DNA of 64,000 bases, taken from NCBI RefSeq assembly GCF_024502345.1, contig NZ_JALDNN010000001.1; one strand, given 5' to 3'. The notes under the pieces were generated by a model. The model worked only from the letters and a program-made list of their open reading frames with translations. It was not told where the DNA came from and made no database searches. Within the stretch, counting starts at the first letter, position 1. Every line of letters starts with the position of its first letter. Of this stretch, positions 1 through 21,420 are shown piece by piece. Source of the stretch: Escherichia coli (GTDB lineage: Bacteria; Pseudomonadota; Gammaproteobacteria; Enterobacterales; Enterobacteriaceae). Made by a program: the position numbers and the translations under genes.

Positions 1-46
1 AATAAGTGTCCGGATCAGCGTGGAATCCGCACAAATCCTGCATCGG

Positions 47-487
47 TCAGCGTCCCACCTGTGCAGAGGCCCAGCGCACGATGTCCTGCGAGCCCATGGC
101 GCCTGCCTGGCGGGCGATCTCACGTCCGCCCTGGAACAGGGCGAGCGTCGGAATGCTGCGGATACCGAACTGCGCGGCCAGGTGGGGCTCAGCCTCGGTG
201 TTCACCTTTGCCAGCCTGATCCCGGGTTCGAGCTGGCGCGCGGCTTGTTGAAACTGCGGCGCCATCATCTTGCACGGCCCGCACCAGGGCGCCCAGAAAT
301 CGACCAGCAGCGGCAGATCGCTGCGCTCCACGTGGCGCGAGAACGTCGCCGTCGTCAACTCGATGGGCTCGCCGGTGAACAAGGGCTGCTGGCAGCGGCC
401 GCAGTTGGAACGATCCGCGAGCTTGGCGGCCGGCACGCTGTTGATGGACTGGCAATGTGGGCAGACGATGTGGAGTTCATTTTTCAT
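47..487 (-). CDS. Thioredoxin, TrxC-like with N-terminal zinc finger (LHR Trx-GI)
   Basis: 146 aa. CPHC...CGRC zinc-finger pair followed by the WCGPC active site. 11-nt overlap with the upstream orf11. Confidence 0.9.
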   Translation of the reverse strand: MKNELHIVCPHCQSINSVPAAKLADRSNCGRCQQPLFTGEPIELTTATFSRHVERSDLPLLVDFWAPWCGPCKMMAPQFQQAARQLEPGIRLAKVNTEAEPHLAAQFGIRSIPTLALFQGGREIARQAGAMGSQDIVRWASAQVGR

Positions 488-1628
488 GGTTCGCTTGCTT
501 GGACTGCGGTGAGGTTGCCTCGCTTCGGATCACCGACATCGCCGACCAATTTACGCCTTTGATCCAATCGTTCCCGTCTTCGCTCACGCCGGCATCTTCC
601 ACGTGAGCCGCAATGAAGGCTTCGGCTTGAATGAGCCCCGCTCTGACAGCATCTATCTTATTAGGCATCCGCAGGATTTCAGCAGCGCAGCCTGCATCCA
701 GCCCATCCACCCGGATAAGCAGAAAAATGCGGCGCCACAAGTGCGGCATACCCTTCATCAGGTCGAATGCAAATGCGAATTCGCTCGATCTGTCACCAAT
801 TTCCTCCTGTTCGGCGATTGCTGCTGGGTCGGGAAGCCGACTATCAGCCATGACGTCGGCCAGGCTGAGTGCGTCATCAGGCTGATAAAACTCGTAGAAC
901 TCTTCCTCTACCATGGCCTCCGCCATGTCCTGCGCATCCGCTTCGACCGGCGCATCCAGCGAAACGGCCTCGCCATATTGCCGGCTGTTTGCCACTTCGC
1001 GATCAATGACGGCAAAAAGATGCTTCAAAAGATCGAGGTAAGCGGCATTTTCTTCTGGAACGGATGTCCATACCGATTCAGCCAGAGCAATCGCTTCGTC
1101 CACCACGTCGTGCAGCGTCGGATAATCGCGAGGCAAATCACCGGCGGCATGCAGATAAGCCAACTCGCGTTGCGCAACGGCCTCAACCTTCGGCAGCAGC
1201 GTCTCGATTATCCCGCGTGCTTGCTGGACGACAGAGGCAGGTTGAGTGTCGATCCGCGCCTTGAGCTCGCGCAAGCGTTCACGACGCGCCTTACGCTTGA
1301 TTTGATCCTGAGCGCTCAGCCGATCAAAGTGCTTCTTGGCCTGCCGGAACAACGCCTGCGCTAGCATGTGCGCGAGAGGCGTCAGATCGTTATGCGATGC
1401 AGTGACGCTGACGATTTTTTTGCCCGGCAAGTGCATGTGGCCACTGGCCGTTAAGCGAGATCCTTTTTTCGCGCGTTCGAGGACGATTTGAAGACGTACC
1501 GAATCTTCGGAGCGCTTTTCGATCAGCGGCTTGAGAGCGGGTTCAACCGCTTTTTCTACAGACATTCGCCAAGGTTCATGAAATTCTTTTTCGACGAGTC
1601 GATAGCTATATTGTATACGCATGCTCAA
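477..1628 (-). CDS. LHR orf11, hypothetical protein (possible HPF/RaiA-like N-terminus and sigma70 region-4-like C-terminus)
   Basis: 383-aa ORF in the conserved LHR position between hdeD and trx. Acidic central linker. Domain guesses come from motif patterns only. Confidence 0.7.
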   Translation of the reverse strand: MSMRIQYSYRLVEKEFHEPWRMSVEKAVEPALKPLIEKRSEDSVRLQIVLERAKKGSRLTASGHMHLPGKKIVSVTASHNDLTPLAHMLAQALFRQAKKHFDRLSAQDQIKRKARRERLRELKARIDTQPASVVQQARGIIETLLPKVEAVAQRELAYLHAAGDLPRDYPTLHDVVDEAIALAESVWTSVPEENAAYLDLLKHLFAVIDREVANSRQYGEAVSLDAPVEADAQDMAEAMVEEEFYEFYQPDDALSLADVMADSRLPDPAAIAEQEEIGDRSSEFAFAFDLMKGMPHLWRRIFLLIRVDGLDAGCAAEILRMPNKIDAVRAGLIQAEAFIAAHVEDAGVSEDGNDWIKGVNWSAMSVIRSEATSPQSKQANHEK

Positions 1629-1720
1629 GTCCTTTAGGGTTGTCCGCCCAGGTGAGTGGACCCGGGTGATTGGATATGTTGATTTTCAAAGATGATCTTA
1701 CGGTTTGGTTTTTCACGCCC

Positions 1721-2332
1721 TTACCTCTGACGCGCTTTGCGCAAACGCCAACTAAGAAGCAAAAGAGTCATACCGAAGATCGCAGCATGGAAACCCAATA
1801 CCCAGCCCGCGGCCAGAAATGATTCGATCGGGCGGGTAAAAAACATCCATAGGATGATCGCACCGAGGAGCACGGAAAGCAGCCCGCTGAGGGCAAGCCA
1901 GATCTCGCCCTTGATTTCCCGGCGCAGACGAACGGCGGCGGATATCTCCAGCATACCGGTGAAAATTGCCCAGAATGCCACGCTTACCCACAAGAAATAG
2001 GCCAACGCCAAAGTGGCAGCCAGAGGGGCAACTACCACAACGACACCGGTGAGTATGCCGACGATGCCGCTGAACAACAGCCAGCCCCAGCGCTGCTTTT
2101 GCCGCATTTGCCGCACCGCTGCAACCAGGTTGAACGCACCATTGACCAAAGAAAATGCGCCGAACACTATCGTCATGGCGAACAAAGCCGAGTGTGGCAT
2201 CCAGAATGCGAGGACTGCAAAAATCAACGCGAATATGCCGCGCAGCGCAAACAACCACCAATTTTGGGTCAGTGAACACACGGCATCGGCAGGGTTATCC
2301 GCATTCGAATCGGCGATGGTATTTGCATTCAT
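1721..2332 (-). CDS. hdeD: HdeD-family acid-resistance membrane protein (HdeD-GI)
   Basis: 203 aa with about six hydrophobic helices and repeated xGxxxxxxG helices typical of HdeD/DUF308. In the LHR position. Confidence 0.85.
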   Translation of the reverse strand: MNANTIADSNADNPADAVCSLTQNWWLFALRGIFALIFAVLAFWMPHSALFAMTIVFGAFSLVNGAFNLVAAVRQMRQKQRWGWLLFSGIVGILTGVVVVVAPLAATLALAYFLWVSVAFWAIFTGMLEISAAVRLRREIKGEIWLALSGLLSVLLGAIILWMFFTRPIESFLAAGWVLGFHAAIFGMTLLLLSWRLRKARQR

Positions 2333-2384
2333 GCGATATCTCCTTGATGGATCATGAGATCAGGAAAATCAAGCCTTCATCGCG

Positions 2385-2411
2385 AAGAGAGGGGCTATTC
2401 GCCCCTCTCTT
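2385..2411 (-). terminator. GC-rich hairpin just downstream of yfdX2 (no U-tract)
   Basis: Perfect 11-bp stem AAGAGAGGGGC/GCCCCTCTCTT with a 5-nt loop, 7 nt after the yfdX2 stop. Confidence 0.35.
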
Positions 2412-2417
2412 GCGGTT

Positions 2418-3305
2418 TTAGAACAGCTTTGACAGTCTCGCCTTGATTTCATCGAGCCAGCCTTTTCCGCTCCCGCCTCCGGCCGTCTTTTCCTTGACTT
2501 TCTTGAGTTCAGAGTACAGGGGCTCAAAGTCCTTCTTTTTGCCATAGCCCAGCAGTTCTGCCATTTCCAACTGCTGCCGGGCTTCGTTTAACAAGTCCTG
2601 CAGGCGTTCACCGGACGCCTCGCTGCGCTGGCCATCTTCTGTCAAGGTCTCGGCGCGCTTGACGAGCAGTTTGGCGCGCAGGATGGGCAGCGGGATGACG
2701 CTGAGTGTCTCGACGAGCGTGCCGAGCGCCAACTGCAGCGCGGCCTTGGCCTCTTCGATCTTGCCCTGATCGATCAGCGGCACGACGGATTTCACGGCTG
2801 CCGGGTAAGTCGCCAGAGGGATGTTGGTGACCGCAATCACGATTTCGCTGGCCAGCAATGCCAACACGCGACGAGCGCGTTGCACCTCGCCATGTTTGAG
2901 GGCATCCAGCGCCTCGTCAGTCATCGCCTCAACGGTTTCCGTGTTGGCGAACAAGTCGTGCACGATGGTGCGCACATCAACGGGGGCCAGGGCGAGCGTG
3001 GGTTCGCGTGCAACGATCAGCTCCAGCTTTCCCGTCACTTCGGCCAGCGTTGCCAGTGCTCGCGCGGATTCTTTTTCGTCCAGGGCCGCCAGCGCTGATT
3101 TGGTCAGCGCCAAGGCCGAGACGGCCTCATCGAGGACTTGTTTACGTTTGTCTGCCGCTTGCGAGTCCGTTTCCTTCTGAACCTCAGGCTGTACCTCCGT
3201 GACGACTTCAGGCTTGGGCTCTGGTCTGGCAGGAAGGCTGCTTACCGCGGCCTGTTCGTTCGTGCCTTCGTTGATCGCGTTGGGATTCGATGTTTGCTCA
3301 TTCAT
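2418..3305 (-). CDS. YfdX-family protein (YfdX2), no obvious signal peptide
   Basis: 295 aa. Paralogous to the next gene (shared ...LGYGKK.DF.P......K..E.K.AGG.SG.GW.DE.K.R..KLF C-terminus). Polar, Pro/Glu-rich N-terminus. Confidence 0.85.
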   Translation of the reverse strand: MNEQTSNPNAINEGTNEQAAVSSLPARPEPKPEVVTEVQPEVQKETDSQAADKRKQVLDEAVSALALTKSALAALDEKESARALATLAEVTGKLELIVAREPTLALAPVDVRTIVHDLFANTETVEAMTDEALDALKHGEVQRARRVLALLASEIVIAVTNIPLATYPAAVKSVVPLIDQGKIEEAKAALQLALGTLVETLSVIPLPILRAKLLVKRAETLTEDGQRSEASGERLQDLLNEARQQLEMAELLGYGKKKDFEPLYSELKKVKEKTAGGGSGKGWLDEIKARLSKLF

Positions 3306-3349
3306 GGTGATATGCCTCGTATGAGATAGTGAAAATAGGGGAATCTATT

Positions 3350-3398
3350 GGGGCCGACTGCGAATATCGCGAGACTGACCGATGGAGCAGTCGGCCCC
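3350..3398 (-). terminator. GC-rich hairpin downstream of yfdX1
   Basis: 12-bp stem GGGGCCGACTGC/GCAGTCGGCCCC with a 25-nt loop, 10 nt after the yfdX1 stop. Confidence 0.3.
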
Positions 3399-3407
3399 TT
3401 CATCACC

Positions 3408-4322
3408 TCAAAACAGCTTTTGGATGCGCGTCTTCAACTCGTCGAACCATCCATTGCCGCTTTTGCCACCAGCCGACTTTTGCTCAATGGACTTCACCTG
3501 ATCGAAGATGGGTTTGAAGTCCTCCTTCTTGCCATAACCCAGGATTTGCGCCAGCTCGATCTCCGTGCGCACGGACGACAGCAAGGTGCTGAGCTCCTCG
3601 TTCTGCTTGGCATCGCGCTTGTCAGTCTCGGCCAGCTTTTCAGCTTTTGCCATCGCGGCTTCGGCCCGTAGCACGGGCAGAGGGAGTACAACTTGGGTGA
3701 CCACCAGCGTGTTCAGTGCTCGGGCGAGTTCCGCCTTGGCGTTGTCGATCTTGCCGCTGTCGATGAGCCGTGCGGCCGACTTGATCGCTGCCGGGTACGT
3801 TGCCATCGGCAGGTTGTCGGTTTCGATCACGATTTCGCTGGCAAGATTGGCAACAATGGGCCGTGCCTTTTGCACCTCGCCATCATCCAACAACTCCTGA
3901 GACAACTTGACCGCTTTCTTGACCGATTCCACGTCGGCGTGGATGTCATGGGTGATGACGCTTACATCGACGGGCGCCAAAGCAATTTTTGGCTCACGCG
4001 CCAATACCAGTTCCAGCTTTCCGCTGGCCAGTTCCAGCGCAGCGAGCGCCTCCTTGGTCTTCTTTGCATCAAGGAGGATCAATGCCTCATGGGTCTTGGC
4101 CAGCGCAGTGATTGCATCTTGGGCGAGTTCGGCGCGCTTCTTCGCGGCTTCCCGGGCGACCTTGTCATCTACCTGTGGCAGCGCCGCTTTGGATGCGGCA
4201 GAGGGTGCTGCAGCACCTGGGCTAGAACCTGCCGCCGATTGGGCCAGAGCCGGTCCGCTCAGTCCGACGACGACCGCCAGGGCAAGTGCGGAGAAGATGT
4301 ATTGTGGCTGTTTGATATTCAT
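3408..4322 (-). CDS. YfdX-family protein (YfdX1) with Sec signal peptide
   Basis: Start chosen at MNIKQPQYIFSALALAVVVGLSGPALA-QS (signal peptide with an AxA site). YfdX C-terminal motif shared with YfdX2. Confidence 0.85.
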   Translation of the reverse strand: MNIKQPQYIFSALALAVVVGLSGPALAQSAAGSSPGAAAPSAASKAALPQVDDKVAREAAKKRAELAQDAITALAKTHEALILLDAKKTKEALAALELASGKLELVLAREPKIALAPVDVSVITHDIHADVESVKKAVKLSQELLDDGEVQKARPIVANLASEIVIETDNLPMATYPAAIKSAARLIDSGKIDNAKAELARALNTLVVTQVVLPLPVLRAEAAMAKAEKLAETDKRDAKQNEELSTLLSSVRTEIELAQILGYGKKEDFKPIFDQVKSIEQKSAGGKSGNGWFDELKTRIQKLF

Positions 4323-4343
4323 GATGTTGGACTCCAATTGAAG

Positions 4344-4802
4344 TTAATTGACTGAAATTTCAATCTGTTTCGGTTTGGCTTGCTCGGCCTTGACAAGCCG
4401 CACTTCCAGCACGCCGTCTTTCATGGAAGCCGTCACCTTGGTCGGATCAACGTTGTCAGGCAAGACAAAGCTGCGCACAAAGCGGCCATACGCACGTTCG
4501 ATGCGGTGGAACTTCTTGCCCTGCTCCTCTTTTTCCAGTTTGCGCTCGCCGCTGATGGTGAGCACACCGTTTTCCGCGCTGACGCGCACGGCATCCTTGG
4601 GGACCTCCGGCAGATCCAGCTTGAGGAGGAATGCGTTCTCATCCTCGCTGATGTCCACCATTGGTGCCCAGTCCGCCGTGGTCATGGCTTCGTTGCCGGT
4701 ACGGGCGCCCTGTCGCTGGGGTGTCCGTCCCAACATCGTCGCCAGGCGGTTTTGCAATTCATCCAGTTCCCGGAAGGGGTCCCACGGAGTCAATGCAGAC
4801 AT
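4344..4802 (-). CDS. Small heat-shock protein, alpha-crystallin/Hsp20 family (sHSP-GI)
   Basis: Start chosen at MSALTPWDPFRELDELQNRL. Contains the alpha-crystallin domain (...AENGVLTISGERK...GRFVRSFVLP...DGVLEV). Confidence 0.9.
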   Translation of the reverse strand: MSALTPWDPFRELDELQNRLATMLGRTPQRQGARTGNEAMTTADWAPMVDISEDENAFLLKLDLPEVPKDAVRVSAENGVLTISGERKLEKEEQGKKFHRIERAYGRFVRSFVLPDNVDPTKVTASMKDGVLEVRLVKAEQAKPKQIEISVN

Positions 4803-4896
4803 ATCGGTTCTCCTTGAACAATGCCGGTGAATTGGATGACGCACCGAACAGAGCCGCCGGCTCACTCTGAATAGCGCCTATTACTTTTCGTTTCTA

Positions 4897-6213
4897 TCAA
4901 GAACAGGCCATGAGCAAGAATAGTCCATGAAGCAATAGCGCATGTCCCATCTCGTGATAGGCCACGGTTTCCCGCTCCTTCGGATTGAGCACACGGTTCT
5001 TCCTTTCCAGGCCGGCCACGATGCGCTCGATGGCGGCGGTGAAGTCTTGCAGCTCCACAGCCTGCGCCTTGCGCCGCGTCGCGTTCAGCGCTGCTTCGTT
5101 CACGAGATTGGCCAGATCAGCGCCGGAAAAGCCGGTGGTCAACGCCGCCACCTGTTCCAGATCTACACCGTGGGCCAGGGTGATCTTCTTGACATGGACC
5201 TTCAGGATATCCAGGCGACCTTTCTTGTCGGGACGGTCCACCAGCACCTGACGGTCGAAGCGACCGGCACGAAGCAAGGCCTGATCGAGGATTTCGGGGC
5301 GGTTGGTGGCGGCGAGGATGATCAGCCCGACCGAGCTGTCGAAGCCATCCATTTCGGTGAGCAACTGGTTCAGCGTCTGCTCACGCTCGTCGTGTCCGCC
5401 GGTCGGTCCTCCGACACCGCGTGCGCGGCCCAAAGCATCCAGCTCATCAATGAAGATGATCGCCGGCGCCTGCCCGCGCGCCTGCTCGAACAGGTCGCGC
5501 ACGCGCGCCGCACCCACGCCGACGAACATCTCGACGAACTCCGAGCCTGAGATGGAAAAGAACGGTACCCCGGCCTCGCCCGCCACGGCCTTGGCCAGCA
5601 GGGTCTTGCCCGTGCCCGGCGGGCCAACCAGCAACACACCTTTCGGGATGCGCGCGCCGAGGCGGCCGTAATCCTGCGGGTTCTTCAGGAAGTCGACGAT
5701 TTCGACCAGCTCGGCCTTGGCCTCATCGACACCCGCGACATCGGCAAAGGTGACGCCGGTGTTCTTCTCCATGAACACCTTGGCGCGGCTCTTGCCGATG
5801 CTCAGGAAGCCGCCCATGCCCTGCTTCTCGGCGAAGCGGCGGAACAGGAAGAACCAGACGCCGAAGAAGGCCACCGCCGGCAGAATCCAGGAGAGCACAT
5901 CACGTAGCCAGGTGCTTTCCACCACCCGCGCGTAGGGCACCTCGTACTTGGACAGCCGCTCGGCCAGGTCGGGTTCGACGCGAGTGGCCACGATGGTGGT
6001 CTTGCCCCGGCTGTCCGGCGATTTCAGGCGCCCGGTGACCGTGCGGTCCGACACCAGCACTTCGGCGACGCGCCCCTCGGCCAGCGCCTTCTCGAATTCG
6101 CTGTAGGGCACGGGCTCGACGGTCTTGGCCGCCTGCCAGTAGTTCTGCAGCGTCAGCAGCAACAGGCCGGCGACGATCCAGTAGCCAATGTTCCATTGAT
6201 CTTTCTTTTCCAT
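4897..6213 (-). CDS. FtsH-family AAA+ metalloprotease, 3'-truncated immediately after the HEXXH motif
   Basis: N-terminal TM helices, Walker A GPPGTGKT, Walker [12 protein letters not shown] region. Ends ...YHEMGHAL then 12 unrelated residues and a stop, so roughly the last 180 aa of a normal FtsH are absent. Confidence 0.8.
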
Positions 6214-6240
6214 GGGCAATGTTCCTCGCAAGTCGTGCCG

Positions 6241-7701
6241 CTAGAGAATGGGGGTGAACAGACGGGCCACCCCGTCGCGCAAGCGCATGGCCAGCGGGTG
6301 GGCGCGCAACGCCTTCGCCGATATCTCGCCCGACACATCACGAGCGGCATCAAAAAGGGATGACAGCCGCGTAGACAACGCGGTGTCGTACACCTCCACA
6401 TTGAACTCGAAGTTGAGGCGCAAACTGCGCGCATCCCAATTGGCCGAACCCAGGCAGCACCACGCTCCGTCTACCAGCATCAGCTTGCTGTGGTCGAACG
6501 GGCCAGGCCGTTCGAAGATGCGCACACCGTGCTCCAGCACCTGCCAGTAGTGGGCGCGCGCGGCCCATTGCACCGTGGGATGGTCGCCGTTTGCGGGCGT
6601 CAGCACGTCGATACGCACGCCGCGCAACGCGGCCGTGCTCAGCGCCGCGATCATCGGCTGATCGGGGACGAAGTAAGGTGTCCAGATGCGCACCGAATGC
6701 TTCGCCGCGCTCAAAGCGCCCATGAAGGTCCAGCGCATCCGGTCCAGGGCCTCGTCGGGACCGGCCTCGATGCCGCGCGCCCAACTGGTTCCCGGCTCAT
6801 CAGCCGTTACGGGCGGTTCGCCCCAGAAACCCTCGTTGAGCCGCTCGCCCGTGGTATCGCACCAATCATCGGTGAAGCTCCGCATCAGATGCTCCACCAC
6901 CGGCCCGCGCAGACGAAAGTGCAAATCGTGACAGGCCTGGTCCGGCGCATCGGGCCGCCAGTACGGGCTGAAGATGTTCAATCCGCCGGTGAAACCCGTC
7001 TCGCCATCGATCACCAGCAGCTTGCGGTGATTCCGCAGATGCGCGGCATGCAGGCGCGCGGGAATCAATGTCGGGTTGAACGTCGCCGCCGGAACGCCGG
7101 CGCGCTGCAAGGCGCGGTAGGCGCTGCGGGGCGTCCAGCGGGCATACACGTCGTCGATCAGCACCCGCACTTGCACGCCGCGCTCATGAGCCCGGCGCAG
7201 CGCATCGACGAACTGCGCCCCGATGCCTTGGCTGTCGAAGATGTACGAGGTCAAGGCGACGCTGTACCGCGCCGATTCGATGGCGGCGAGCATGGCCGGG
7301 TAGGCCTGCTCGCCATCGACAAGCGGCTCGATGCGGTTGCCGCCGGTCAGCGACTGGCCGGTGGCGCGTCCCACCAGGTGGGCCAGACCGGCAAGTGGCG
7401 GCGATACAGCCTCGGGTATCGTGGGCGAGAGATCCTGCCGAACAGCAGGATCTGCCCCCGGGAAGAGCCGCCGCGCCCGCCGCTGGTAACGGTTGATGCC
7501 GAACAGCCCATACAGCAGCGAACCGCCCAGCGGCAGCAAGGCGATCAGCAGTACCCACAGCGTGGCCGATCGAGGGTCACGCTTGTAGATGACCGCATGC
7601 CCCGCTGTGGGGATAGCGACCGCCAGCGACACGAGGGTGGCTGCCCATGTCAGCCCATTGGGGTCGGACACGACAGCCTCCCATCGCTCAAGATTCGCCA
7701 T
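6241..7701 (-). CDS. Cardiolipin synthase / phospholipase D family protein
   Basis: Start chosen at MANLERWE (ATG 7701). Two N-terminal TM helices and two HKD motifs (HRKLLVID..., HSKLMLVD...). 14-nt overlap with the clpK stop. Confidence 0.9.
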   Translation of the reverse strand: MANLERWEAVVSDPNGLTWAATLVSLAVAIPTAGHAVIYKRDPRSATLWVLLIALLPLGGSLLYGLFGINRYQRRARRLFPGADPAVRQDLSPTIPEAVSPPLAGLAHLVGRATGQSLTGGNRIEPLVDGEQAYPAMLAAIESARYSVALTSYIFDSQGIGAQFVDALRRAHERGVQVRVLIDDVYARWTPRSAYRALQRAGVPAATFNPTLIPARLHAAHLRNHRKLLVIDGETGFTGGLNIFSPYWRPDAPDQACHDLHFRLRGPVVEHLMRSFTDDWCDTTGERLNEGFWGEPPVTADEPGTSWARGIEAGPDEALDRMRWTFMGALSAAKHSVRIWTPYFVPDQPMIAALSTAALRGVRIDVLTPANGDHPTVQWAARAHYWQVLEHGVRIFERPGPFDHSKLMLVDGAWCCLGSANWDARSLRLNFEFNVEVYDTALSTRLSSLFDAARDVSGEISAKALRAHPLAMRLRDGVARLFTPIL

Positions 7702-10537
7702 CCGCTGACTTCTTCTTGCGCGCAGGCTTGCTCGCGTCGCCAGGCGGTGCCTCGGCCACGTCCGCGGCATCGGGCTTTTCAGGCTCAGCCGACTTCGCGG
7801 GTGGCTCCTGGCGCTCGAAGACCACCCGTTCGGCCTTGTCGTCCCAGCGGGCGTTGGCGTGATCACCCTTGCCGATACCGCCACCCAGCATCTCGCGCGC
7901 CAGCGCGGTTTCCAGCTCGCTGCGGATCAGCCGCTTGAGCTCACGCGCGCCGAACTCGGGCTTGTAGCCTTCCTCCGCGAAGTGGTCGATCAAGGTCTGA
8001 TCGAAGGTCAGCGTCACGCCCTGGCTGGCGGCGTTGCGGGCCACACGATCAAGCTGCAGGCCGACGATATGGCGGATTTCCTCCTTGCCCAGCGCATGGA
8101 AGACGATGATCTCGTCGATGCGGTTGATGAACTCGGGGCGGAAGTGTCCGCGCAGCACGTCCATCACCTCGGACTTGGTCTTCTCGTATTCCTCGCCGGC
8201 GGCGCCACCGGCCTTCAGCCGACGCTGGATGATGTCCGAGCCCAGGTTCGAGGTGGCGATGATGATGGTATTGGTGAAATCCACCACCCGGCCCTTGCCG
8301 TCGGTGAGCCGCCCGTCGTCGAACACCTGCAGCAGGATGTTGTAGACGTCGGGGTGCGCTTTTTCGATCTCATCGAGCAGCAACACGCTGTAGGGCTTGC
8401 GACGCACCTTCTCGGTGAGCTGGCCGCCCTCGTCATAGCCCACATAACCCGGAGGCGCGCCCACCAGGCGTGCCACGGCATGGCGTTCCCCGTACTCGGA
8501 CATGTCGATGCGCAGCAGCGCACCTTCATCGCCATAGATGGACTCGGCCAGCGCCTTGGCGAGCTCGGTCTTGCCCACGCCGGTCGGCCCAAGGAACAGG
8601 AAAGTCGCCACCGGCTTGTCGCCTTCGCGCAGGCCCGCGCGCGACAACCGCACGGCATCGGCCACCGCGCGCACCGCTTCGTCCTGGCCCACCAGGCGCT
8701 CATGCAGCCGCTGCTCCAGATGCAGCAGCTTCTCGCGTTCTTCCACCGTCAGCTCGTTGACCGGAATGCCGGTCAGGCGCGAGACGATCTGCGCGACATG
8801 CTCGGCCTTGACTTCGGCGCTGCCCGAGGCGCGCTCGCGTTCCCATTCCTCGACGAGCTGCTTGAGTTCAGTCTCCTTGGCCTCGATGCGCTTGCCCAGC
8901 TCGGCGGCCTTGTCGTACTGCTTGCGCGAGGCCATGTAGTCCTGCTCACGCCGCAACTGGTGCAGTTCGGACTCCAGCTCCTGCACCGCCACCGGGCGAG
9001 CCGTGGCCGACAGCTTCACGCGTGCGGCCGCCTGGTCAAGCAGGTCGATGGCCTTGTCAGGCAAAAAGCGCGCGGTGATGTAGCGGTCCGACAACTCGGC
9101 GGCGGCGATGATCGCATCCTCGGTGATGCTGACCTTGTGGTGCGCCTCGAAGGTGTCGCGCAGGCCGCGCAGGATCATCATGGTCTGCGCTACCGTCGGC
9201 TCGGGCACCATCACCGGCTGGAAACGACGCTCCAGCGCGGCGTCCTTCTCGATGTACTTCTGATACTCGTTGAGCGTGGTGGCGCCGATCAGGTTCAGTT
9301 CGCCGCGCGCCATCATCGGCTTGAACACGTTGGCCACGTCCAGCCCGCCTTCGCCGCCACCCTGGCCTGCACCGACGATGGTGTGCACTTCATCGATGAA
9401 GAGAATCATCTCGCCCTGGTGCTCGGTCACTTCCTTGAGCACCTTCTGCACGCGCTCCTCGAACTCGCCGCGATACTTGGCGCCTGCCACCATGGCGTTG
9501 ATGTTGAGCTCGACCAGACGCTTGTCGCGCAGCGTCTCGGGCACTTCACCGGCGACCATGCGCTGCGCCAGCCCTTCGACAATGGCGGTCTTGCCGACGC
9601 CGGGCTCACCGATCAACACCGGGTTGTTTTTCTTGCGCCGGGCCAGCACCTCGATGGTGGTCTCGATCTCCTGCGCACGGCCGATGACTGGATCGAGTTT
9701 GCCCTCGCGCGCCATCTTGGTGAGGTCGCGCGAGTATTTATCCAGCTCGGGCGTGTTGGTCGGCGTCTCGGCGCGGCCATCCTCGGCCCCTTTGCCGACC
9801 ACCTTGCTTACCTGCTGGCGCAGCGCTTGCGGCGTGAGGCCGTAACGGCGCAGCAGGTTGGCCGCCAAACCTTCGCCTTCCTCAGCGAGCCCGATCAGGA
9901 AATGCTCCGGCCCGACATAAGAGTGGCCGAGTTCGTTGGAGGCCACGAAAGCGCGGCTGAGCGCGTCCTTGACCCGGGGCGACACGCCGACTTCGCCCTC
10001 GAACGGCTTCTCGCCGCGCTTGGCTTCGGATTCGATCTGTCGCTTGAGGTCATCGACCTTGATCTTGAACTGTCCCAGGATGGTCTTCACCACGTCGCTG
10101 TCGGATAGCGCCAGCAGCAGGTGTTCGGTATCGACTTCGGCGCGCCCGAACTCTGCAGCGTGTCGGGCGGCCTCCTGCAATAGGGCCTCGGACTGTTCGC
10201 TGATACGGCTGGCGAGCCCACTGCCGCGACGGCGCGCAGTGCCCGTACCGGCCGGGGCGGGTTCGCCGAACGAGGCATCGACCACCTCGTCGGTATCGGC
10301 CGCCATGGACGGCGAATCGTCACCGATGCGGAAGAAGTCGCTGCCGAGGAAGTCTTCGAACAAGCCGCTGCGCGAGCCAAACAAGGCTTCCAGCGGCGAG
10401 ACGGTGCGCTTTTGCTGGCGCGCCAGTTGGCGATAGTGATCGTCACACAACAGCATGGTGCTGTGGCGACCATTGAGATTGGCTTCCACCCGCACCGTGG
10501 CGGGCTGGCCGCAGACCTGGCATTGTTTTCTGGCCAT
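7688..10537 (-). CDS. clpK: ClpK / ClpG-GI stand-alone AAA+ disaggregase
   Basis: Start chosen at [10 protein letters not shown] (949 aa). N-terminal CxxC...CDDH zinc module, Clp_N repeats, two AAA+ modules ([16 protein letters not shown]) and a middle coiled coil. Confidence 0.95.
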
Positions 10538-10634
10538 GCTCATGCTCCTTGAGAGGACTGATTTGACGAGGCGCCGAAGGTCACGGCGCCTCGCCATTCA
10601 CTTGGTTTTTCTGTAGAGAACAAGCCGATCGGCG

Positions 10635-11204
10635 TCAGCCGTTGATCGGGATCGAGCGGCCCTGCTTGGGCGCACTGGCCTCGCGCTTTTCCATTGTGAT
10701 CGTGAGTACGCCGTTCTTGAAAGCGGCCTTGATCGTGTCCTGGTTGGCATCGGTCGGCAGGTTCAGAGCGCGCTGAAAGCTGCCGTAGGAGCGCTCCACC
10801 CGGTGGAAACCGCCGTCTTTGCTTTCCTGCTCCTGACGCTTTTCACCGCGAACCAGCAGCACGTCGTTGTCGAGCGTGATATGGATGTCTTTTTCCTCGA
10901 CGCCGGGAACCTCCAAAGAAATCTTGTACTGCTTGTCGGTCTCCTGGATGTCCAGCGCCGGCTTCAGCAGGCCCGGCCAGTCCGACGGCCAGCGTGGCAT
11001 GGCCAGCGCCGGAAAGCCGAAGCCTCGAAACGTGTCGTCGAAGAGGCGGTCGATCTCGCGGTGCAATTGCAGGATGGGACTGACGGGCCCACCCGCTACC
11101 GGCAGGTCATTGCGCTGCACCGGCAGCGAGGCAGTGCTCTGTTGTTCTTCCTGCTCCTTCTTGAACCAGTTCCAGGGAGCCAACTTCTTGAAATCAATGT
11201 CCAT
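10635..11204 (-). CDS. Small heat-shock protein sHSP20 (Hsp20 family)
   Basis: Start chosen at MDIDFKKLAPWNWF (189 aa). Alpha-crystallin domain (...LDNDVLLVRGEKR...GSFQRALNLP...NGVLTITM). Immediately upstream of clpK. Confidence 0.9.
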   Translation of the reverse strand: MDIDFKKLAPWNWFKKEQEEQQSTASLPVQRNDLPVAGGPVSPILQLHREIDRLFDDTFRGFGFPALAMPRWPSDWPGLLKPALDIQETDKQYKISLEVPGVEEKDIHITLDNDVLLVRGEKRQEQESKDGGFHRVERSYGSFQRALNLPTDANQDTIKAAFKNGVLTITMEKREASAPKQGRSIPING

Positions 11205-11239
11205 GTCACACCTCCAGAACAAAAATTGAAGACTCTCGC

Positions 11240-11521
11240 TCACTCCGTTTGCCTGCGGCTATGGATAGCGCGCCCAGGCAACACGGGATGTTTCGCTGAC
11301 TTCGGCTGCTCATCTGTACGTATCACCTCCTTCTTTCTGCCTGCTTGGATCTGATCATTGATCCATCGATCGATTTCACTTTGACGAAACCGCCACGTCC
11401 CGCCGACCTTGAAGGCCGGAATCTCCCCGTGCGCGGCGAGCCGGTAGAGCGTCCGCTTGCCGACCTTTAAGTAGGTAGCCAACTCGTCGAGTGTGAAGAT
11501 CGCCTGCTGGCGCGCTGTCAT
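11240..11521 (-). CDS. Helix-turn-helix DNA-binding protein, excisionase/MerR-like (LHR orf1)
   Basis: Start chosen at MTARQQAIFTLDELATYLKVGKRTLYRLAAHGEIPAFKVGGTWRFRQSEIDRWI, a typical excisionase-family HTH. First gene of the LHR. Confidence 0.75.
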   Translation of the reverse strand: MTARQQAIFTLDELATYLKVGKRTLYRLAAHGEIPAFKVGGTWRFRQSEIDRWINDQIQAGRKKEVIRTDEQPKSAKHPVLPGRAIHSRRQTE

Positions 11522-11569
11522 ACCACCCCCACAAGTTCCGTCGTCACGCGGCCTCGCCTGAGGAAGTTC

Positions 11570-11621
11570 TTGCAAGACTTTGCAAGATATTGCGCCTAAT
11601 ATGCCAAAAGTCAAGAGTCAA
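11570..11621 (-). promoter_or_regulatory. Candidate promoter/operator region upstream of LHR orf1
   Basis: Two overlapping TTGACT hexamers on the minus strand (11609-11614, 11616-11621). Two TTGCAAGA repeats at 11570-11577 and 11580-11587, exactly 10 bp apart; TTGCAA is self-complementary. No clean -10 element. Confidence 0.3.
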
Positions 11622-11949
11622 CATCCAGCGATCTGCTGGCCGATTGATGTGACTCAAATCTTCAAGGACGGTATGCCAGGGCGGGCCGGTCCGGCGCAGG
11701 GGACGGTGGGTTGATCGGGACCTTGCGGGCGCCGCCCACGGCCGCAGATCAAACACCGATCCTCACGTTGTAACCGAGCGCCCGCAGCCCCTTGCTCGTG
11801 CGCATGTTCCTTGGCGGAAACTCGTCTGGGCGCGCCCAGCCGACGATTTCCCCGAGGCTGCTCAGGCCAATGTGCGGAATTGCCCAGTCGTCGCTGCGGA
11901 TCGCGTTCCAGAGTCGGGCCGAAAAACCTCCGTTGCCCCAGACAACGTA

Positions 11950-11957
11950 GTTCAACA
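11950..11957. repeat. 8-bp target-site duplication (left copy) GTTCAACA
   Basis: Identical octamer abuts both ends of the 472-bp IS66-family remnant. Confidence 0.7.
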
Positions 11958-12429
11958 GTATCCGTCCTGCCAACACACCTTCCCGACACCGCCGCCGAAG
12001 GCCATGGCCCATCAAGCGGATTTTCCATGCCCCCTCAGCGCCGTACCTACAGCAAATCTTTCAAGGCCCAGGTCATTCAGGAGTGTTCTGAACCCGGTGC
12101 CTCCATCGCAAACATCGCCTTGGGCTACAGCCTCAATGCCAACCTCGTCCACAAATGGATTCGGCTGCATACCCAGAAAACCACGGCTATCCAGCCAGCG
12201 TTCATCCCGTTGCCTTCTCAAATGCTCGGCGCGGGATCGCATGCTCAAGTGCGCTGCTGCGATCATGAGTTTGATCCAGTCGGCCCGTAATAATGGGCAC
12301 GATCCGTATGCCTATCTCAAGGATGTGCTGACACGGTTGCCGACGCAGCGGGCGAGTGAGATTGCAGAGCTGCTGCCGCATAGGTGGCATCCGGCATAGT
12401 CGCGCAAGACGGTCTGCCCGCACGCTTAC
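11958..12429 (+). mobile_element. IS66-family element, internally deleted (472 bp): tnpA 5' part fused to tnpC 3' end
   Basis: TnpA-like MPPQRRTYSKSFKAQVIQECSEPGASIANIALGYSLNANLVHKWIRLH (from 12027). From ~12226, in another frame, the TnpC C-terminus ...AAAIMSLIQSARNNGHDPYAYLKDVLTRLPTQRASEIAELLPHRW*. Imperfect inverted ends GTATCCGTCCTGCC / GTAAGCGTGCGGGC. 8-bp direct repeats flank it. Confidence 0.7.
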
Positions 12430-12437
12430 GTTCAACA
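12430..12437. repeat. 8-bp target-site duplication (right copy) GTTCAACA
   Basis: Immediately follows the ...CGCTTAC terminus of the IS66-family remnant. Confidence 0.7.
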
Positions 12438-12654
12438 GCTCAAGCACCGTCCGCCCTTCGCGGGATCGTTGCCGCCAGAGCCACACGCCGAACTTTTCCA
12501 CCTTGTCGTCGCCGGCCTGCGGTCAGTCAGGCAAGCCCAGGTGCTTGTTTTCCTGCTTGATCGCGTGGTCTCGGATCGCGTGCACCCGGGAAACGGCATC
12601 CACGAACTGCCACCATCTCTTAGCTTGGCGGGGTCAAGCCAGCCGGGATGCCCG

Positions 12655-14497
<1,843 letters not shown>

Positions 14498-14505
<8 letters not shown>

Positions 14506-16000
14506 TCCATCTTCCTATCAATCGAATGAACGCAGTGGTCAGTGGTGCCACCCTGCTTTTTTCCAATCCACAACGCTTTTCCAGCTCCCAGCGCCTAGAC
14601 GTTATGCCTGTCTGTACATCCTTCAGCATCGCTGCAGTCAGGCGACGGATCTGATACTCGCCGACGGACTCGGCATAGCGATCCAGGAAGGTGCAGCAAA
14701 GAGGCAATTGATCGAGACGGTGCTCGACTGATGCCCGATGGGGTAGCTGCTGCAGGAACCAGTTGCGACTCCTGCGCGGAAGGCCCAGGTCTTCTTCGCT
14801 ACCTCTACCAATCCGGATCAGCAGGCGCACCAACCTTATGTCACGCGCTCGCCAGTCGATGTGGCTGTTGTTGCCCTGTCGGCGCTGCCTGACCTGGTTC
14901 GCAACCATCAGCCAGTGTCGGTCATGACGATAGAGCCAGGCGTAACATGCCCCTGCTCCGTCTTGCCTGGCTGCCTTGGCTCCACCGTGATTAGCCAGTG
15001 CTTGCAGCCAAATGGCTCGGTACTGCTGCTTTTGCTCAAACTCAGCAGGGAGCAGCTGCACTGACCGCTCGGAGGCAAGGTCGACCTGGCGAGTCTTCGC
15101 CTCGCTGATCAGCTCGCCAGCATGCTGGCCAGGGCGCAGGCTGGTCCAGACGATCAGATGCTGCAGCGCACTGAATCCCTTGCGATGCTTCCTGAACATC
15201 GCCAACAGCCAAGGTGGAGGCTCTCCGGATGTCAGCAGACCGTTCGCAGCAAGCCAATCCCTTTGATGGGATGCCAGGATCTTCTCCCAGATGACTTCAG
15301 CCCTGACCTGCCGGCCTCGCCTGGCGCCGCACTCTGTAGCCAGGTACCGGTACAGGTTGGTCCAGCGTCCGTAGCCAGGCGATTGCACCTCTTCGAGCGC
15401 CAGCAGCTGCATAGCAGCCTTGGCGAGCCTGATAGCCTCTTCGCCCACGGGACTCACGCGAAGATCACGGGGCAGAAACAGTGGAGAGGCTGTATGAAAC
15501 TCGTGCCGCTGCGCTCGACGGAACGGGATAGGTGAGTTCAGGAGCTGACAGCCATGCTCGGGACAGGCATCTATCCCTTGAATCTGCCAGCTGCGCCGCC
15601 AGTAGGGTTCACCGTAGCGCGCAGCCATATCTTCAAAGCAGATCGGGCAGTAACGCAGCCAATCGGGCCACTTGACCAAGGCCGTCGAGGCCCCAGACAG
15701 ACCAATCGTCGGCCGGTCGGGAGCAAGCATGGCCTGAAAAAGATCGGTACGGCGCTCCGGCGGAATGAAAGGGGCATAGAGCGGGAACAGCGTGTGATTC
15801 AGGATCATGCCTTCCGCATCCAAGCCCGTGTTGTTCGCCAACGCAGTCAGGTGTGTGGGCAGATCGGTGATCGCGGCAACCTTGCTGTCACCGAAAAGCA
15901 TGTGCAGCAAGGTCTTGTGGCTGCCTATCCCCAGATGTACCCGGCACCGGGCAATACCGCTGTAAAGCAGTTCGTCCGGGTAGAGCCTGGGGAAGTACAT
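14498..16000 (-). CDS. tnsD: TnsD/TniQ-family target-site selector
   Basis: 500 aa. TniQ N-terminus FPRLYPDELLYSGIARC and zinc-finger-like CPICF...CPEHGC. Same position and size as Tn7 TnsD (recalled as 508 aa). Confidence 0.85.
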
Positions 16001-16001
16001 G

Positions 16002-17612
16002 TCAGCTCGCTCTCAGCAGAGGCCGTAGATCGAGGATCAAGCCAGCCTGCTTGAATCTGTCATAGGCCTCGCTTTCAGGCCCATCGGCATAACGTCGGCG
16101 CAGATCCTCCTCGGATAGGCACCCCCACTCCGTCCGCTTAACTCTGGAAATGCCGGGCCTCTTGGGAGCGTCCTGCGCGAGGTAGGCCGTGGCCTTGTGA
16201 ATCAGGGCCGCCAGCGGGATGTCCGGATTCTCCGCCAACAATTCATCGGCCATGGGAATGGCGATGTCCCTCGGGATTTCCATACCTTCGAGCAGGGCGG
16301 CCAACCGCTTTGCCTTGTCATCAGCCGGAGGGGCCGGTGGTTTAGGTTGGGGGACGCTATCCAGAGAGCGAGTCAGGGTCAGCAACCGTCCCTCGATCTC
16401 TGGCATCAGCAGGTCGTCATATTTGGCGATCAGCTCGGGCCTACCGCTCCGCAAGGCCGCCAGCATCGGATGGACCGGTTTGAACTCGTCCTCGAAAACC
16501 CTGCGCAGCAACAGCGGCTTAATGCACTCGACACCTGTCACTATCGCCCGGATCTGCGCCAGCGCGAACAGCTTGATGACGATGTCCATGACCCCTTGGG
16601 TGAGGTCGTACATCGTAGCCTCCAGTTCATCATCCAGCGGCGCCGCATTTCGCAGCCACTGATACTTCCAAAGCCGCTTCAACAGACGCTTCCAATGCTC
16701 GTCCCGAGGCAACCTATCCCAGCGGATGCTGCCCAACCCGGAGACCCGCCGAGCAGCCCGGAACGTGCGCTGGAAGAACTTGCTGGCCCGGTGGGTGCCG
16801 ACCTGAATGATCGGAACACCGATGGTGTTCACCAGCGACACGAAGAAATTGTGCATTTTTTCGGCACCACCGGAGCGTGCCTCGTTGAGGTTCTGAACCT
16901 CGTCGATGATCAGCACTCCGAGCGTGTGCAGATTGGCCAGCTGGCACATGGATGCCAGCAGACGTTTGGTACCCAGCTTCTTGCGTCCGTGGCTACGGCT
17001 GTAGTGGGTACCCAGGATCTTGTCTACTTCGTTGAAGAAGCTCAGGCACAGCTCATCCAAGTCACCGTCAATTGGGCAGTCGATCTTCAGGTAGACCAGT
17101 TGGGTGATGTCGTAATCAGGGTGATGGAGAGCTTGGGGGTACATGCCCAGAATCCGCTCCAGCGTGCGCGTCTTGCCGCAACCGGAGCAGCCGAACAGCG
17201 ACAGGCTGTTGGCCGTAGAGGAGACACTCTGGTACACCGCCGCATCCAGATCCTCCTCCTCGACACGGCGATAGCCATTCTGCAGGTGCGCATACCAGGC
17301 ACCGCTGGCCGGATTCCGACCGATGTACCCTTGACGGATCATCAGGCTGATCTTGCTCTCCAGCTCCAAGTGATGGCTCAGCGGCTGGAAGAAGCCGTGC
17401 AACAGGCGGGCAATCGCATGTGCCCTGAGCCGACCATCCAGAAGCGCCTCCTGCGGCTCGAAACCGGGAAGCTGCTGCAATAGATCGACCACCTCCTGCA
17501 GATCAGGAATCGGAGGCAATGCGCTGATGAGCGGATTGTCCTGATACTCGGGAAGCTGCTGCTCCTGGTAACGCGCCAGGGGAATGACTCCGCGCTGGAA
17601 TTCTTCAGTCAT
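16002..17612 (-). CDS. tnsC: TnsC AAA+ transposition regulator
   Basis: 536 aa. Walker A GCSGCGKT, Walker B VLIIDEVQ. Follows tnsB with an 8-nt overlap. Confidence 0.9.
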   Translation of the reverse strand: MTEEFQRGVIPLARYQEQQLPEYQDNPLISALPPIPDLQEVVDLLQQLPGFEPQEALLDGRLRAHAIARLLHGFFQPLSHHLELESKISLMIRQGYIGRNPASGAWYAHLQNGYRRVEEEDLDAAVYQSVSSTANSLSLFGCSGCGKTRTLERILGMYPQALHHPDYDITQLVYLKIDCPIDGDLDELCLSFFNEVDKILGTHYSRSHGRKKLGTKRLLASMCQLANLHTLGVLIIDEVQNLNEARSGGAEKMHNFFVSLVNTIGVPIIQVGTHRASKFFQRTFRAARRVSGLGSIRWDRLPRDEHWKRLLKRLWKYQWLRNAAPLDDELEATMYDLTQGVMDIVIKLFALAQIRAIVTGVECIKPLLLRRVFEDEFKPVHPMLAALRSGRPELIAKYDDLLMPEIEGRLLTLTRSLDSVPQPKPPAPPADDKAKRLAALLEGMEIPRDIAIPMADELLAENPDIPLAALIHKATAYLAQDAPKRPGISRVKRTEWGCLSEEDLRRRYADGPESEAYDRFKQAGLILDLRPLLRAS

Positions 17613-19692: not shown

Positions 19693-20506
19693 TGCTCAGC
19701 TCCTGATGCATTTGATGAGAGTTGGCAACCAGGTCTTTCGGCTTCAGCTCCCGGTAAGGAGTGTCAAGATCGAAAAGGAAACAGTGCCGGGCCAGCAACT
19801 GGCGTAGCCAATAGAGCGCCTGACCGGCCTCCAGCTGGCCGGAGGTATCCAGTCCTTGGGCAATAGCGGTCAGCTTCCGGTCTGGGTGACGCTGAAACTC
19901 GAGCAGAAACAGCTGCTGGTAATGGGCGAGATCGTCCTGAGCGATGTCGCCTTCAGCATGGGCAGGATAGAGCCATTGGATATTGGCAAATGCCACCTTG
20001 GATACCTCGCGCTCCGTAACGATGACCCAGGGAATACCTTTTTCCTGCCAGTAGCGCCTTTCAAGCTCAAGCCTCTCGATAACTTCAGGCTTCTGCAGGT
20101 CGGTACTGTACTTGGCCTGAATCGCGATGCTCGGGCGCTGAGGATCTTCGAAATCCACCAGAAAGTCGCTGGTCAGTACCTGCGGGGTACCCTTGTAACA
20201 ACCGTGGGGCAGGCCAAGCTCCTCGGCGATGCGCACCGTATCTTCGACCCGCATCGGAAACTGTTCACGGATATCGGTGACATGGGGAGACCGATCCAAG
20301 GTCAGGAAGATGGCCAGTTCAAGATCGGATAGAAGATGGTGTAAACGCCGGGTCTTGCTGCCAGGCAGGCGGTGGGAGCGACCCAGCGAGGACACGTCCC
20401 TTGTGTAGATGAACGGCTTGTAGTCTGATCCCTGGCCTTGACCACGCCCGTCCTTGAGCCTTCTATCGATCTGGGCCTGGGTCAGCCCCTTGAATGTTCC
20501 AGACAT
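19679..20506 (-). CDS. tnsA: TnsA endonuclease-like transposase subunit
   Basis: 275 aa. Colinear with recalled Tn7 TnsA: RRLKDGRGQGQGSDYKP, GRSHR, HHLLSDLELAIFL, DIREQFP, TSDFLVD, LELERRYWQEKGIPW. Confidence 0.95.
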   Translation of the reverse strand: MSGTFKGLTQAQIDRRLKDGRGQGQGSDYKPFIYTRDVSSLGRSHRLPGSKTRRLHHLLSDLELAIFLTLDRSPHVTDIREQFPMRVEDTVRIAEELGLPHGCYKGTPQVLTSDFLVDFEDPQRPSIAIQAKYSTDLQKPEVIERLELERRYWQEKGIPWVIVTEREVSKVAFANIQWLYPAHAEGDIAQDDLAHYQQLFLLEFQRHPDRKLTAIAQGLDTSGQLEAGQALYWLRQLLARHCFLFDLDTPYRELKPKDLVANSHQMHQELSSVAR

Positions 20507-20566
20507 GAGAAAGCCTGCCCCCGCTGTGTCGATGACCTCAACATAGCGGATGCAGGCTCAGAATGA

Positions 20567-20628
20567 AACTTTATTTATACGGATGATACTTTATTTATAC
20601 GGATGAACCTTTATTTGCATCCCACACA
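20567..20628 (-). repeat. Tn7-family right-end: terminal TGT(GT)GGG and three tandem 20-bp TnsB-binding-type repeats
   Basis: Minus strand reads TGTGGGATGCAAATAAAGGT TCATCCGTATAAATAAAGTA TCATCCGTATAAATAAAGTT TCATTC. The repeats have a 20-bp period (C at 20569/20589/20609). The terminus is at 20626 or 20628. Confidence 0.8.
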
Positions 20629-20703
20629 TTTTACTTAAGGCATAAGCGGTAGAGTTGAGTGATAACCCTTCCATAATTTCATTTTCTAACACACTAATTT
20701 AAT

Positions 20704-21069: not shown

Positions 21070-21216
21070 TTGCGCTAAGGCAGATCCTTTCGCTTCTGGT
21101 GGAGGTGGGTATATATACCTAATGCTTAGTCAACGACAGTATGACCTCATGGAATAACCATTTTTGAAAGTGCTCACCAGCTGCGCTTCGGTCGCTCGAC
21201 ATGACTCAATACAAAC

Positions 21217-21420
21217 CTAGTTGGAGCTATAACTTTCGCCGTAGGAATTAATGACCATTATTTGGCCAGCATCAACAGGCTGGCCATCTAAAGTAACAAG
21301 TCGTTTAGTTGCACGCTCTGGAAAGATAATATCCTTTGACTGCCTATCTTCTTCAATGTCCTTTAGTACCTTAGCCAAGGAGGTTTTCAATGTTCCATGG
21401 GGCGCATACAAAGAGCACAC
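21217..21420 (-). CDS. Hypothetical small ORF (possibly a gene fragment)
   Basis: 67-aa ORF only. No recognisable motif or clear RBS. Confidence 0.2.
   Translation of the reverse strand: MCSLYAPHGTLKTSLAKVLKDIEEDRQSKDIIFPERATKRLVTLDGQPVDAGQIMVINSYGESYSSN

Follow-up and report, generated by a model that had tools for sequence, protein, structure and literature searches.

A tLST2c-type heat-resistance island carried by a Tn7-like transposon in the chromosome of Escherichia coli

The stretch of DNA analysed in the present work (the window) comprises 64,000 nt of contig NZ_JALDNN010000001.1 (assembly GCF_024502345.1) of Escherichia coli, and the subject is the island at its left end, positions 1-11621, which an earlier note made from the sequence alone had recognised as the heat-resistance locus (LHR), which also goes by the name of transmissible stress-tolerance locus (tLST). 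The comparisons described below bear this recognition out: database matches reach E = 0, the reference loci are colinear with the window, and the largest gene product passes the model that is specific for ClpK. The island, its modules and its structural variant have already been published, and its carriage by Tn7-like elements is known in outline. The modest additions made here concern the E. coli element, whose borders and target duplications are defined, the tns genes, which this copy keeps intact, and the distal half of the locus, which is of Pseudomonas type.

Gene content and identity of the island

The reference loci were those of a published tLST set (PMC12603250), namely tLST2 (CP061749), tLST3a (CP010237) and tLST3b (CP061755), with a tLST1-type locus taken from FAM21845; close relatives such as the E. 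coli genomes ABWA45 and G3/10 were compared as well. Scores for families of the NCBIfam collection were judged against its cut-offs, and for YfdX1, YfdX2, HdeD-GI and orf11, for which NCBIfam has no hidden Markov models, Pfam models and identity to annotated relatives were used instead. Eleven genes, all on the minus strand and therefore in the same direction, span 47-11521 in the list of open reading frames (ORFs). All eleven had been named in the earlier note, and the family models agree with those names.

47-487, minus strand: trx-GI, thioredoxin; CxxC...CxxC zinc finger at the N-terminus, WCGPC active site; NF008229 TrxC, 154 bits (cut-off 125)
477-1622, minus strand: orf11, conserved tLST protein of unassigned function
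1721-2332, minus strand: hdeD-GI, DUF308 membrane protein; PF03729, 81.8 bits
2418-3305, minus strand: yfdX2; PF10938 YfdX, 130 bits
3408-4322, minus strand: yfdX1; PF10938 YfdX, 121.9 bits; 100% identical to the ABWA45 gene annotated yfdX1
4344-4802, minus strand: sHSP-GI (hsp20-GI), second small heat-shock protein; Hsp20-type models; hsp20-GI in relatives
4897-6213, minus strand: ftsH-GI pseudogene
6241-7671, minus strand: cls-GI/PLD, PLD-family cardiolipin synthase with two HKD motifs; 98.6% identical to tLST3a/3b
7688-10537, minus strand: clpK (ClpG-GI), stand-alone AAA+ disaggregase, 949 aa from MARKQ
10635-11204, minus strand: sHSP20 (shsp20-GI); Hsp20-type models; 100% identical to tLST2/3a
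11240-11521, minus strand: orf1/dna, HTH_17 (MerR-like) DNA-binding protein; PF12728, 64.3 bits; 100% identical to the references
11522-11700, minus strand: region upstream of orf1, site of the published tLST promoter

The core triplet orf1(dna)-shsp20-clpK/clpG is present in tLST order and orientation, and agrees with the tLST2 and tLST3a references at 100% identity. The set of the envelope module (sHSP-GI, yfdX1, yfdX2 and hdeD-GI) is complete and 100% identical to the ABWA45 genes, which are annotated yfdX1 and hsp20-GI, and the part of the oxidative-stress module that lies within the window consists of orf11 and trx-GI, both whole, followed by four codons of kefB before an insertion sequence (IS). 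The translation of clpK, a gene whose nucleotide sequence matches the tLST2 and tLST3a alleles at 100%, contains two Walker A motifs (GEPGVGKT and GPTGVGKT) and scores 2153 bits on the ClpK model NF033606 (cut-off 1900), with positions 1-949 of 949 aligned. The trx-GI gene shows 99.8% nucleotide identity to ABWA45, G3/10 and a plasmid of Pseudomonas fragi NMC25 (NZ_CP021133). No Pfam or NCBIfam family matched orf11, which is 99.9% identical to the P. fragi plasmid and 78% identical to the E. coli references. Partial translational coupling, which had been proposed for these genes, holds for orf11 and trx, whose reading frames overlap by 11 nt, and does not extend to the other neighbouring pairs, which are separated by gaps of 16-130 nt.

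The gene order that the earlier note gave for the LHR is borne out by the colinearity of tLST2, tLST3a and tLST3b with the window, and the alignment to published loci that it proposed as a check returned high identity in colinear arrangement, rather than low identity or a disrupted order. The genes clpK, sHSP20 and orf1, together with the region upstream of orf1, are 99.8-100% identical to tLST2/3a/3b, with equal gene order; when the adjoining tnsA-E genes (see below) are included with clpK, sHSP20 and the helix-turn-helix (HTH) gene, the identity per gene is 98.6-100%, with the exception of tnsD against tLST2 (94.2%). The tLST3b locus is colinear apart from one 528-bp deletion, with 99.05% identity over 4937-20626 and 87.4% over 37-4905. 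In a megablast search with 1-11621 as the query, the region was matched at E = 0 in 156 of the 5,426 complete E. coli genomes and in 1,331 plasmids, mostly of Klebsiella, and the matched features are annotated clpK, yfdX1, trx-GI and hsp20-GI, that is, as heat-resistance genes. Most of the island region has a GC content of 57-68%, compared with about 50% for the backbone further to the right. The chromosomal location that had been claimed for the island is confirmed by the right half of the window, which is 99% identical to E. coli and holds aspV, dnaQ, rnhA, gloB, mltD, rrnH, dnaE and proS. A second tLST copy was looked for elsewhere in the window, and none was found.

The tLST promoter has been reported 63 bp upstream of orf1 (review PMC8290217). 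Positions 11534-12882, which hold the reported site, are 100% identical to tLST3a, tLST3b and tLST2, and elements resembling TTGACT...ATATCT can be read about 60-90 nt upstream of orf1. Because no consensus promoter site turned up in 1-12900 in a simple sigma-70 scan, the placement of the promoter rests on the literature and on this complete upstream identity. Terminator-like sites in 1-12900 are no commoner than in shuffled sequence.

The left edge of the window

At its left edge the window begins within a mobile element, and the following two features precede trx-GI.

1-31: terminus of an ISPa85-like element of the IS21 family; the window starts inside the IS
32-43, minus strand: first four codons of kefB-GI (ATG CAG GAT TTG)

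The reverse complement of 1-31 is TGCGGATTCCACGCTGATCCGGACACTTATT, and the published left inverted repeat (IRL) of ISPa85 is tgcggattccacgctgactcggacacccatt (PMC8411920). The match of intact tLST loci to the window starts at base 32, which places the IS insertion point at 31/32, after codon 4 of kefB-GI; comparison with the intact trx-kefB junctions of two loci (L008 and L006) and with the IS junctions of ABWA45 identifies CAAATCC at 32-38 as one copy of the 7-bp target duplication of the IS. Both ABWA45 and G3/10 carry a complete istA/istB element of the IS21 family at the identical point, with both ISPa85 ends and the CAAATCC duplication, and beyond it they have kefB, a GGDEF gene, psiE, htpX and degP. 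The claim that the locus runs off the left edge is thus right, with the qualification that the edge cuts the IS rather than kefB; the kefB, psiE and degP genes that had been expected to the left do not immediately adjoin, as the ISPa85-like element breaks kefB after its fourth codon. In ABWA45 (L001 12440-12470) the ISPa85 end contributes an ATG in frame with kefB, so that KefB gains a hybrid start (MAWNP-QDLL) and the reading frame stays open, and because of this ATG the RefSeq kefB of ABWA45 is 12 nt longer than the gene in intact loci.

Mosaic structure, the ftsH deletion and the structural variant

Identity was profiled along the window in 250-bp steps against tLST3b and against the P. fragi NMC25 plasmid. 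Over 5750-12900 the identity to tLST3b is 95-100% in each step, and mostly 99-100%, and the tns genes are 99.9-100% identical to tLST3b; the P. fragi plasmid is not the nearest type over 5750-20626. Over 5000-5750, within ftsH, the identity to tLST3b is 82-90% and the P. fragi plasmid has no match, and over 3500-4250, the 5' half of yfdX1, the window is 84-98% identical to tLST3b and 84-97% identical to the P. fragi plasmid. Over 1-3500 it is the P. fragi plasmid that matches at 97-100%, with tLST3b at 66-92% up to about position 3000 (orf11, hdeD and the downstream part of yfdX2) and at 99-100% from there on. From this profile, tLST3b-like in its right part and P. fragi-like over 1-3500, the locus is a recombinant, in which an enterobacterial tLST2/3 backbone at the ClpK end is joined to a Pseudomonas-type distal half that runs from the envelope module through trx.

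The deletion in ftsH-GI sits at one of the recombinant junctions. The gene lacks 528 bp of its 3' part, and residues 1-427 of 609 are kept in a BLASTP alignment with the full-length FtsH of tLST3b. The truncated protein stops six residues past the HEMGH motif, with most of the protease domain gone, and its match to TIGR01241 covers profile positions 8-432 of 598 and is below the cut-off. In RefSeq, ftsH is annotated as a pseudogene in ABWA45 and G3/10. Strains with truncated and with intact ftsH-GI have been reported to be equally heat resistant (PMC8290217).

A match of 99.7% over 6-11621 is found in only four of the 5,426 complete E. coli genomes, namely ABWA45, G3/10, C 236-04A and LR536430. 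The features of this group are the 528-bp deletion in ftsH, the absence of the MscS/orfC-D insert in orf11 and an IS at the trx-kefB junction. The variant tLST2c has been described by a minor deletion in ftsH, the lack of orfC/orfD and an ISPa85 element between trx and kefB (Li et al. 2025, PMC12603250), and all three are present in the window: the ftsH deletion, the absence of orfC/orfD and the ISPa85-like terminus at 31/32. A DNA duplication between kefB and orfE also belongs to tLST2c, in a part of the locus that falls beyond the left edge of the window. According to the same study, tLST2c is often found together with tLST1. The human faecal E. coli G3/10 (NZ_CP060076.1) carries this tLST in its chromosome and a tLST1-like copy (86%) on a 100-kb plasmid. 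ABWA45 belongs to sequence type ST635, a 'naturalized' wastewater lineage (PMC11169474).

The island as cargo of a Tn7-like transposon

To the right of the island lie a short region of remnants, five tns genes and the end of a transposon.

11749-12791: remnants between the island and tnsE, comprising a small hypothetical ORF, transposase fragments (11749-12399) and a 102-nt TnsC-like fragment (12690-12791)
12883-14505, minus strand: tnsE; PF18623 TnsE_C, 150 bits
14498-16000, minus strand: tnsD (TniQ/TnsD); PF06527 and PF15978
16002-17612, minus strand: tnsC, AAA+ regulator; PF13401 and PF05621; intact in the window, this part deleted in ABWA45
17605-19692, minus strand: tnsB, DDE transposase; PF09299 Mu-transpos_C
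19679-20506, minus strand: tnsA, endonuclease subunit; PF08722 and PF08721
20560-20626: right end of the transposon, with three adjacent repeats (ACTTTATTTATACGGATGA twice, then ACCTTTATTTGCATCCCACA), ending ...CCCACA
20627-20631: CATTT, right-hand copy of the 5-bp target-site duplication

The genes tnsABCDE are thus five intact ORFs (12883-20506) that adjoin one transposon end, and beyond tnsA the sequence runs ...ACTTTATTTATACGGATGATACTTTATTTATACGGATGAACCTTTATTTGCATCCCACA. The position of the border is given by two sets of genomes: the similarity to G3/10, where the element occupies another chromosomal site, and to plasmid CP061755 ends at 20626/20627, and strains that are free of the element and carry the neighbouring type III restriction island match the window from 20627 on. 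An empty site is preserved in RX24, which reads GGAAGGC-CATTT-TACTTAAGG. Three relatives of the element share the same inverted ends, TGTGGGATGCAAATAAAG...CTTTATTTGCATCCCACA, each with a 5-bp duplication of its own insertion site.

ABWA45: same site as in the window; CATTT on both sides; element of 27.5 kb
G3/10: different chromosomal site; duplication CCAGT; element of 29.1 kb
Plasmid CP061755: plasmid site; duplication GACGT; element of 26.9 kb

The tLST occupies essentially all of the cargo space between the left end and tnsE, and the same tns genes are found in the tLST2 and tLST3a references, whereas tLST1 has lost them. A Tn7-like transposon of about 29 kb thus carries the island as its cargo, and is inserted with a CATTT duplication in a genomic island beside the tRNA-Asp gene aspV. 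In RX24 (L005 3837-4019) a small hypothetical ORF of 183 nt is annotated whose stop codon follows the insertion point by 13-18 nt, and the element clips the end of this ORF. Published work mentions Tn7 elements flanking tLST, and in the literature searched there was no paper that defines the ends, target duplications or empty site of the E. coli element.

That the element can transpose is suggested by its three independent insertions, each with a duplication. A more far-reaching proposal is that tLST2/3 is the sole cargo of a still-active tnsABCDE element of 27-29 kb in E. coli, which would move among chromosomes, islands and plasmids without a glmS-type site, and that the copy in the window is a transposition-competent recombinant; the chances for and against this proposal are considered to be evenly balanced. 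The remnants at 11749-12791, which were named from the annotation of ABWA45, LR536430 and the references at the homologous positions, are 100% identical in tLST2, tLST3a and tLST3b, and some of this sequence is shared, at 90-100%, with tLST1 and with the P. fragi plasmid. In appearance they are a scar left by an earlier element, nested or rearranged, which would predate the split of the tLST variants.

Expected function

Heat resistance has been reported to need the first two modules of the locus and not the oxidative module, while chlorine resistance needs all three (PMC8290217). In the present copy the protein-homeostasis module consists of orf1 (HTH), sHSP20, ClpK/ClpG-GI, Cls and the broken FtsH, the cell-envelope module, with a published role in envelope protection, consists of sHSP-GI, YfdX1, YfdX2 and HdeD-GI, and the oxidative-stress module begins with orf11 and Trx-GI. 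Transcription would proceed from the promoter reported upstream of orf1; heat-denatured cytoplasmic proteins would be held by sHSP20 and aggregates resolved by ClpK alone, and oxidants would be countered by Trx-GI, KefB-GI and the distal proteases. On the strength of the literature, this copy is a probable source of heat tolerance. Tolerance of chlorine is in doubt, since the IS stands in front of the distal module, and any contribution to it would depend on the presence and expression of the genes there.

Alternative explanations

It is highly probable that the region is a genuine copy of the tLST in an E. coli chromosome, of the tLST2c variant, recombinant in structure and carried as Tn7-like cargo. 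If it were instead an ordinary chromosomal cluster of chaperone and protease genes that resembles the LHR in gene names only, then all that spoke for it would be that Hsp20, Clp, FtsH and thioredoxin are generic families; the nucleotide identity of up to 100% to reference tLSTs, the score of 2153 bits on the ClpK model compared with 1305.5 for ClpG and 991 for ClpB, the raised GC content (57-68% against about 50% in the backbone) and the presence of the region in just 156 of 5,426 E. coli genomes leave this explanation with a practically negligible probability. A generic chaperone locus was accordingly rejected on the ClpK model score and the reference identity. A further explanation, in which the island came with the aspV genomic island by way of an integrase or homologous recombination and the Tn7-like genes are inert neighbours, draws on the fact that the element lies inside the aspV island (tRNA-Asp at 30156-30232) and on the uneven similarity to LR536430: positions 11622-24965, the transposon and the island remnants, are 99.92-100% identical to it and the core from 24961 to 36000 only 98.8%, which suggests recombination of the whole region. 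This explanation is nevertheless judged very unlikely, since the same unit of 27-29 kb is found at another chromosomal site and at a plasmid site as well, with equal ends and its own 5-bp duplication in each case, and the locus has a precise empty site. Delivery by the integrase of the aspV island was rejected on the target duplications, the shared ends and the empty site in RX24. Transposition and recombination need not be alternatives: the former made the insertion, and the latter may have spread the element. From the similarity to LR536430 it seems that, once the transposon had been inserted, recombination exchanged the region of the island between lineages.

Several observations weigh against the preferred reading of the island. 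The fit of the variant to tLST2c is an assignment by verbal description and not by accession. The 31-base IS terminus is unlike those in the four genomes nearest to it, being set apart from them by four mismatches or else by the loss of 46 bp between terminal direct repeats; the left-edge junction (window 1-46) has 0 exact matches in genome contigs and 0 in metagenome contigs, and the identical junction occurs in no complete E. coli genome. The distal genes from kefB to degP and the left end of the transposon lie outside the window and could be missing, ftsH-GI is a pseudogene in this copy, cls-GI scores 289.2 bits on TIGR04265, 0.8 bit below the cut-off of 290 for cardiolipin synthase, and the genome comes without a phenotype. 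Another explanation is that the copy is partly decayed and gives reduced or no stress protection, with weakened heat tolerance and lost chlorine and oxidant tolerance, in which case any phenotype would come from a second tLST elsewhere in the genome. The cut of ftsH shortly after HEMGH, the separation of kefB and the downstream genes from the island promoter by the IS, and the reported requirement of all three modules for chlorine resistance speak for decay, and a second locus would be in keeping with the co-occurrence of tLST2c and tLST1 (Li et al.) and with the plasmid copy of tLST1 type in G3/10. Against decay, the other ten genes have their full length and show 98.6-100% identity to alleles of the references or relatives with an annotation as intact, truncation of ftsH-GI is reported to leave heat resistance unimpaired and the oxidative module to be dispensable for it, and the IS terminus in ABWA45 provides an in-frame ATG that leaves the kefB frame open. 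Partial decay is considered unlikely, although far from negligible, and a genuine tLST2c-type copy that would confer heat tolerance is preferred.

The neighbouring chromosome

Positions 24836-30232 hold a remnant of a CP4-type island that adjoins aspV, with genes for DUF905, DUF932, antirestriction, RadC, a YeeU/CbtA toxin-antitoxin pair, DUF5983 and DUF4942. A second tRNA-Asp gene lies at 38380-38456; after it comes the rrnH operon, whose tRNA-Ala and tRNA-Ile genes occupy 41807-42001. When 21911-24965 is compared with LR536430 and RX24, four blocks of 1.37, 2.37, 4.48 and 2.26 kb are missing from the window; the retained sequence between these blocks agrees with LR536430 at 99.9-100%, with an overlap of 2-5 nt at each junction. 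The genes broken or lost through the four deletions are those for the type III restriction endonuclease and methylase, the DUF4391 protein, a helicase-related protein, a GTPase and a WYL regulator, and the deletions represent either real stepwise decay or an artefact of assembly.

Significance

With the tLST, E. coli can withstand 60 degrees C, high pressure and chlorine, and the island therefore bears on meat processing, on the margins of pasteurisation and on wastewater disinfection. Flagging the island in genomes is useful for risk assessment, and a close relative of the present copy, that of ABWA45, comes from the wastewater lineage ST635.

Comparison with known systems

Tn7 is characterised by the genes tnsABCDE, by TGT...ACA termini with repeated sub-terminal sites and by 5-bp target duplications. 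The element described here has the gene set, the termini, the sub-terminal repeats and the 5-bp duplications in common with it, and differs in that the three insertions seen are not at a glmS-type attachment site. In Pseudomonas aeruginosa CF39S, a Tn7-like transposon has been drawn with tdcA and LHR-like genes (Almblad et al. 2021, PMC8012707); the principle of a tLST-type set as Tn7-like cargo is the same, the two elements being likened by description and not by sequence.

Among the tLST loci, the tLST2c genomes ABWA45, G3/10, C 236-04A and LR536430 share with the window the gene order, the ftsH deletion, the IS between trx and kefB and the adjoining Tn7-like genes. The main difference lies in clpK, for which ABWA45 and G3/10 have an allele of 99.0-99.4% identity with an insertion of 12-24 nt, whereas the window carries the tLST2/3a reference allele; in addition, tnsA, tnsC and tnsD are damaged in ABWA45 and intact in the window. 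The tLST3b, tLST3a and tLST2 references are 99-100% alike to the window along the backbone, which extends from the middle of ftsH by way of clpK, orf1, the IS remnants and the genes tnsE-A as far as the end of the transposon, and they have the same ends, but their FtsH is full-length (609 aa) and their trx-kefB junction unbroken, neither of which is true of the window. The trx gene of the tLST2 reference is 99.5% identical to that of the window, and this reference carries within orf11 an MscS/orfC-D insert which the window lacks. The tLST1/LHR1 locus of the AW1.7 type (FAM21845) has the same modules in the same order and, according to the literature, also lacks a functional ftsH-GI; most of its genes, however, have only 78-93% nucleotide identity to the window, Cls and the Tn7-like genes are absent, and its flanks are formed by remnants of IS256, IS3 and IS5. 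The plasmid of P. fragi NMC25, a meat isolate, matches the window at 99.8-100% in trx, orf11, hdeD and yfdX2, with identical protein accessions for Trx-GI, HdeD and YfdX, and retains remnants of tnsA and tnsB; it is without cls and ftsH, and its sHSP20 and orf1 are 82-84% and its clpK 94% identical to those of the window.

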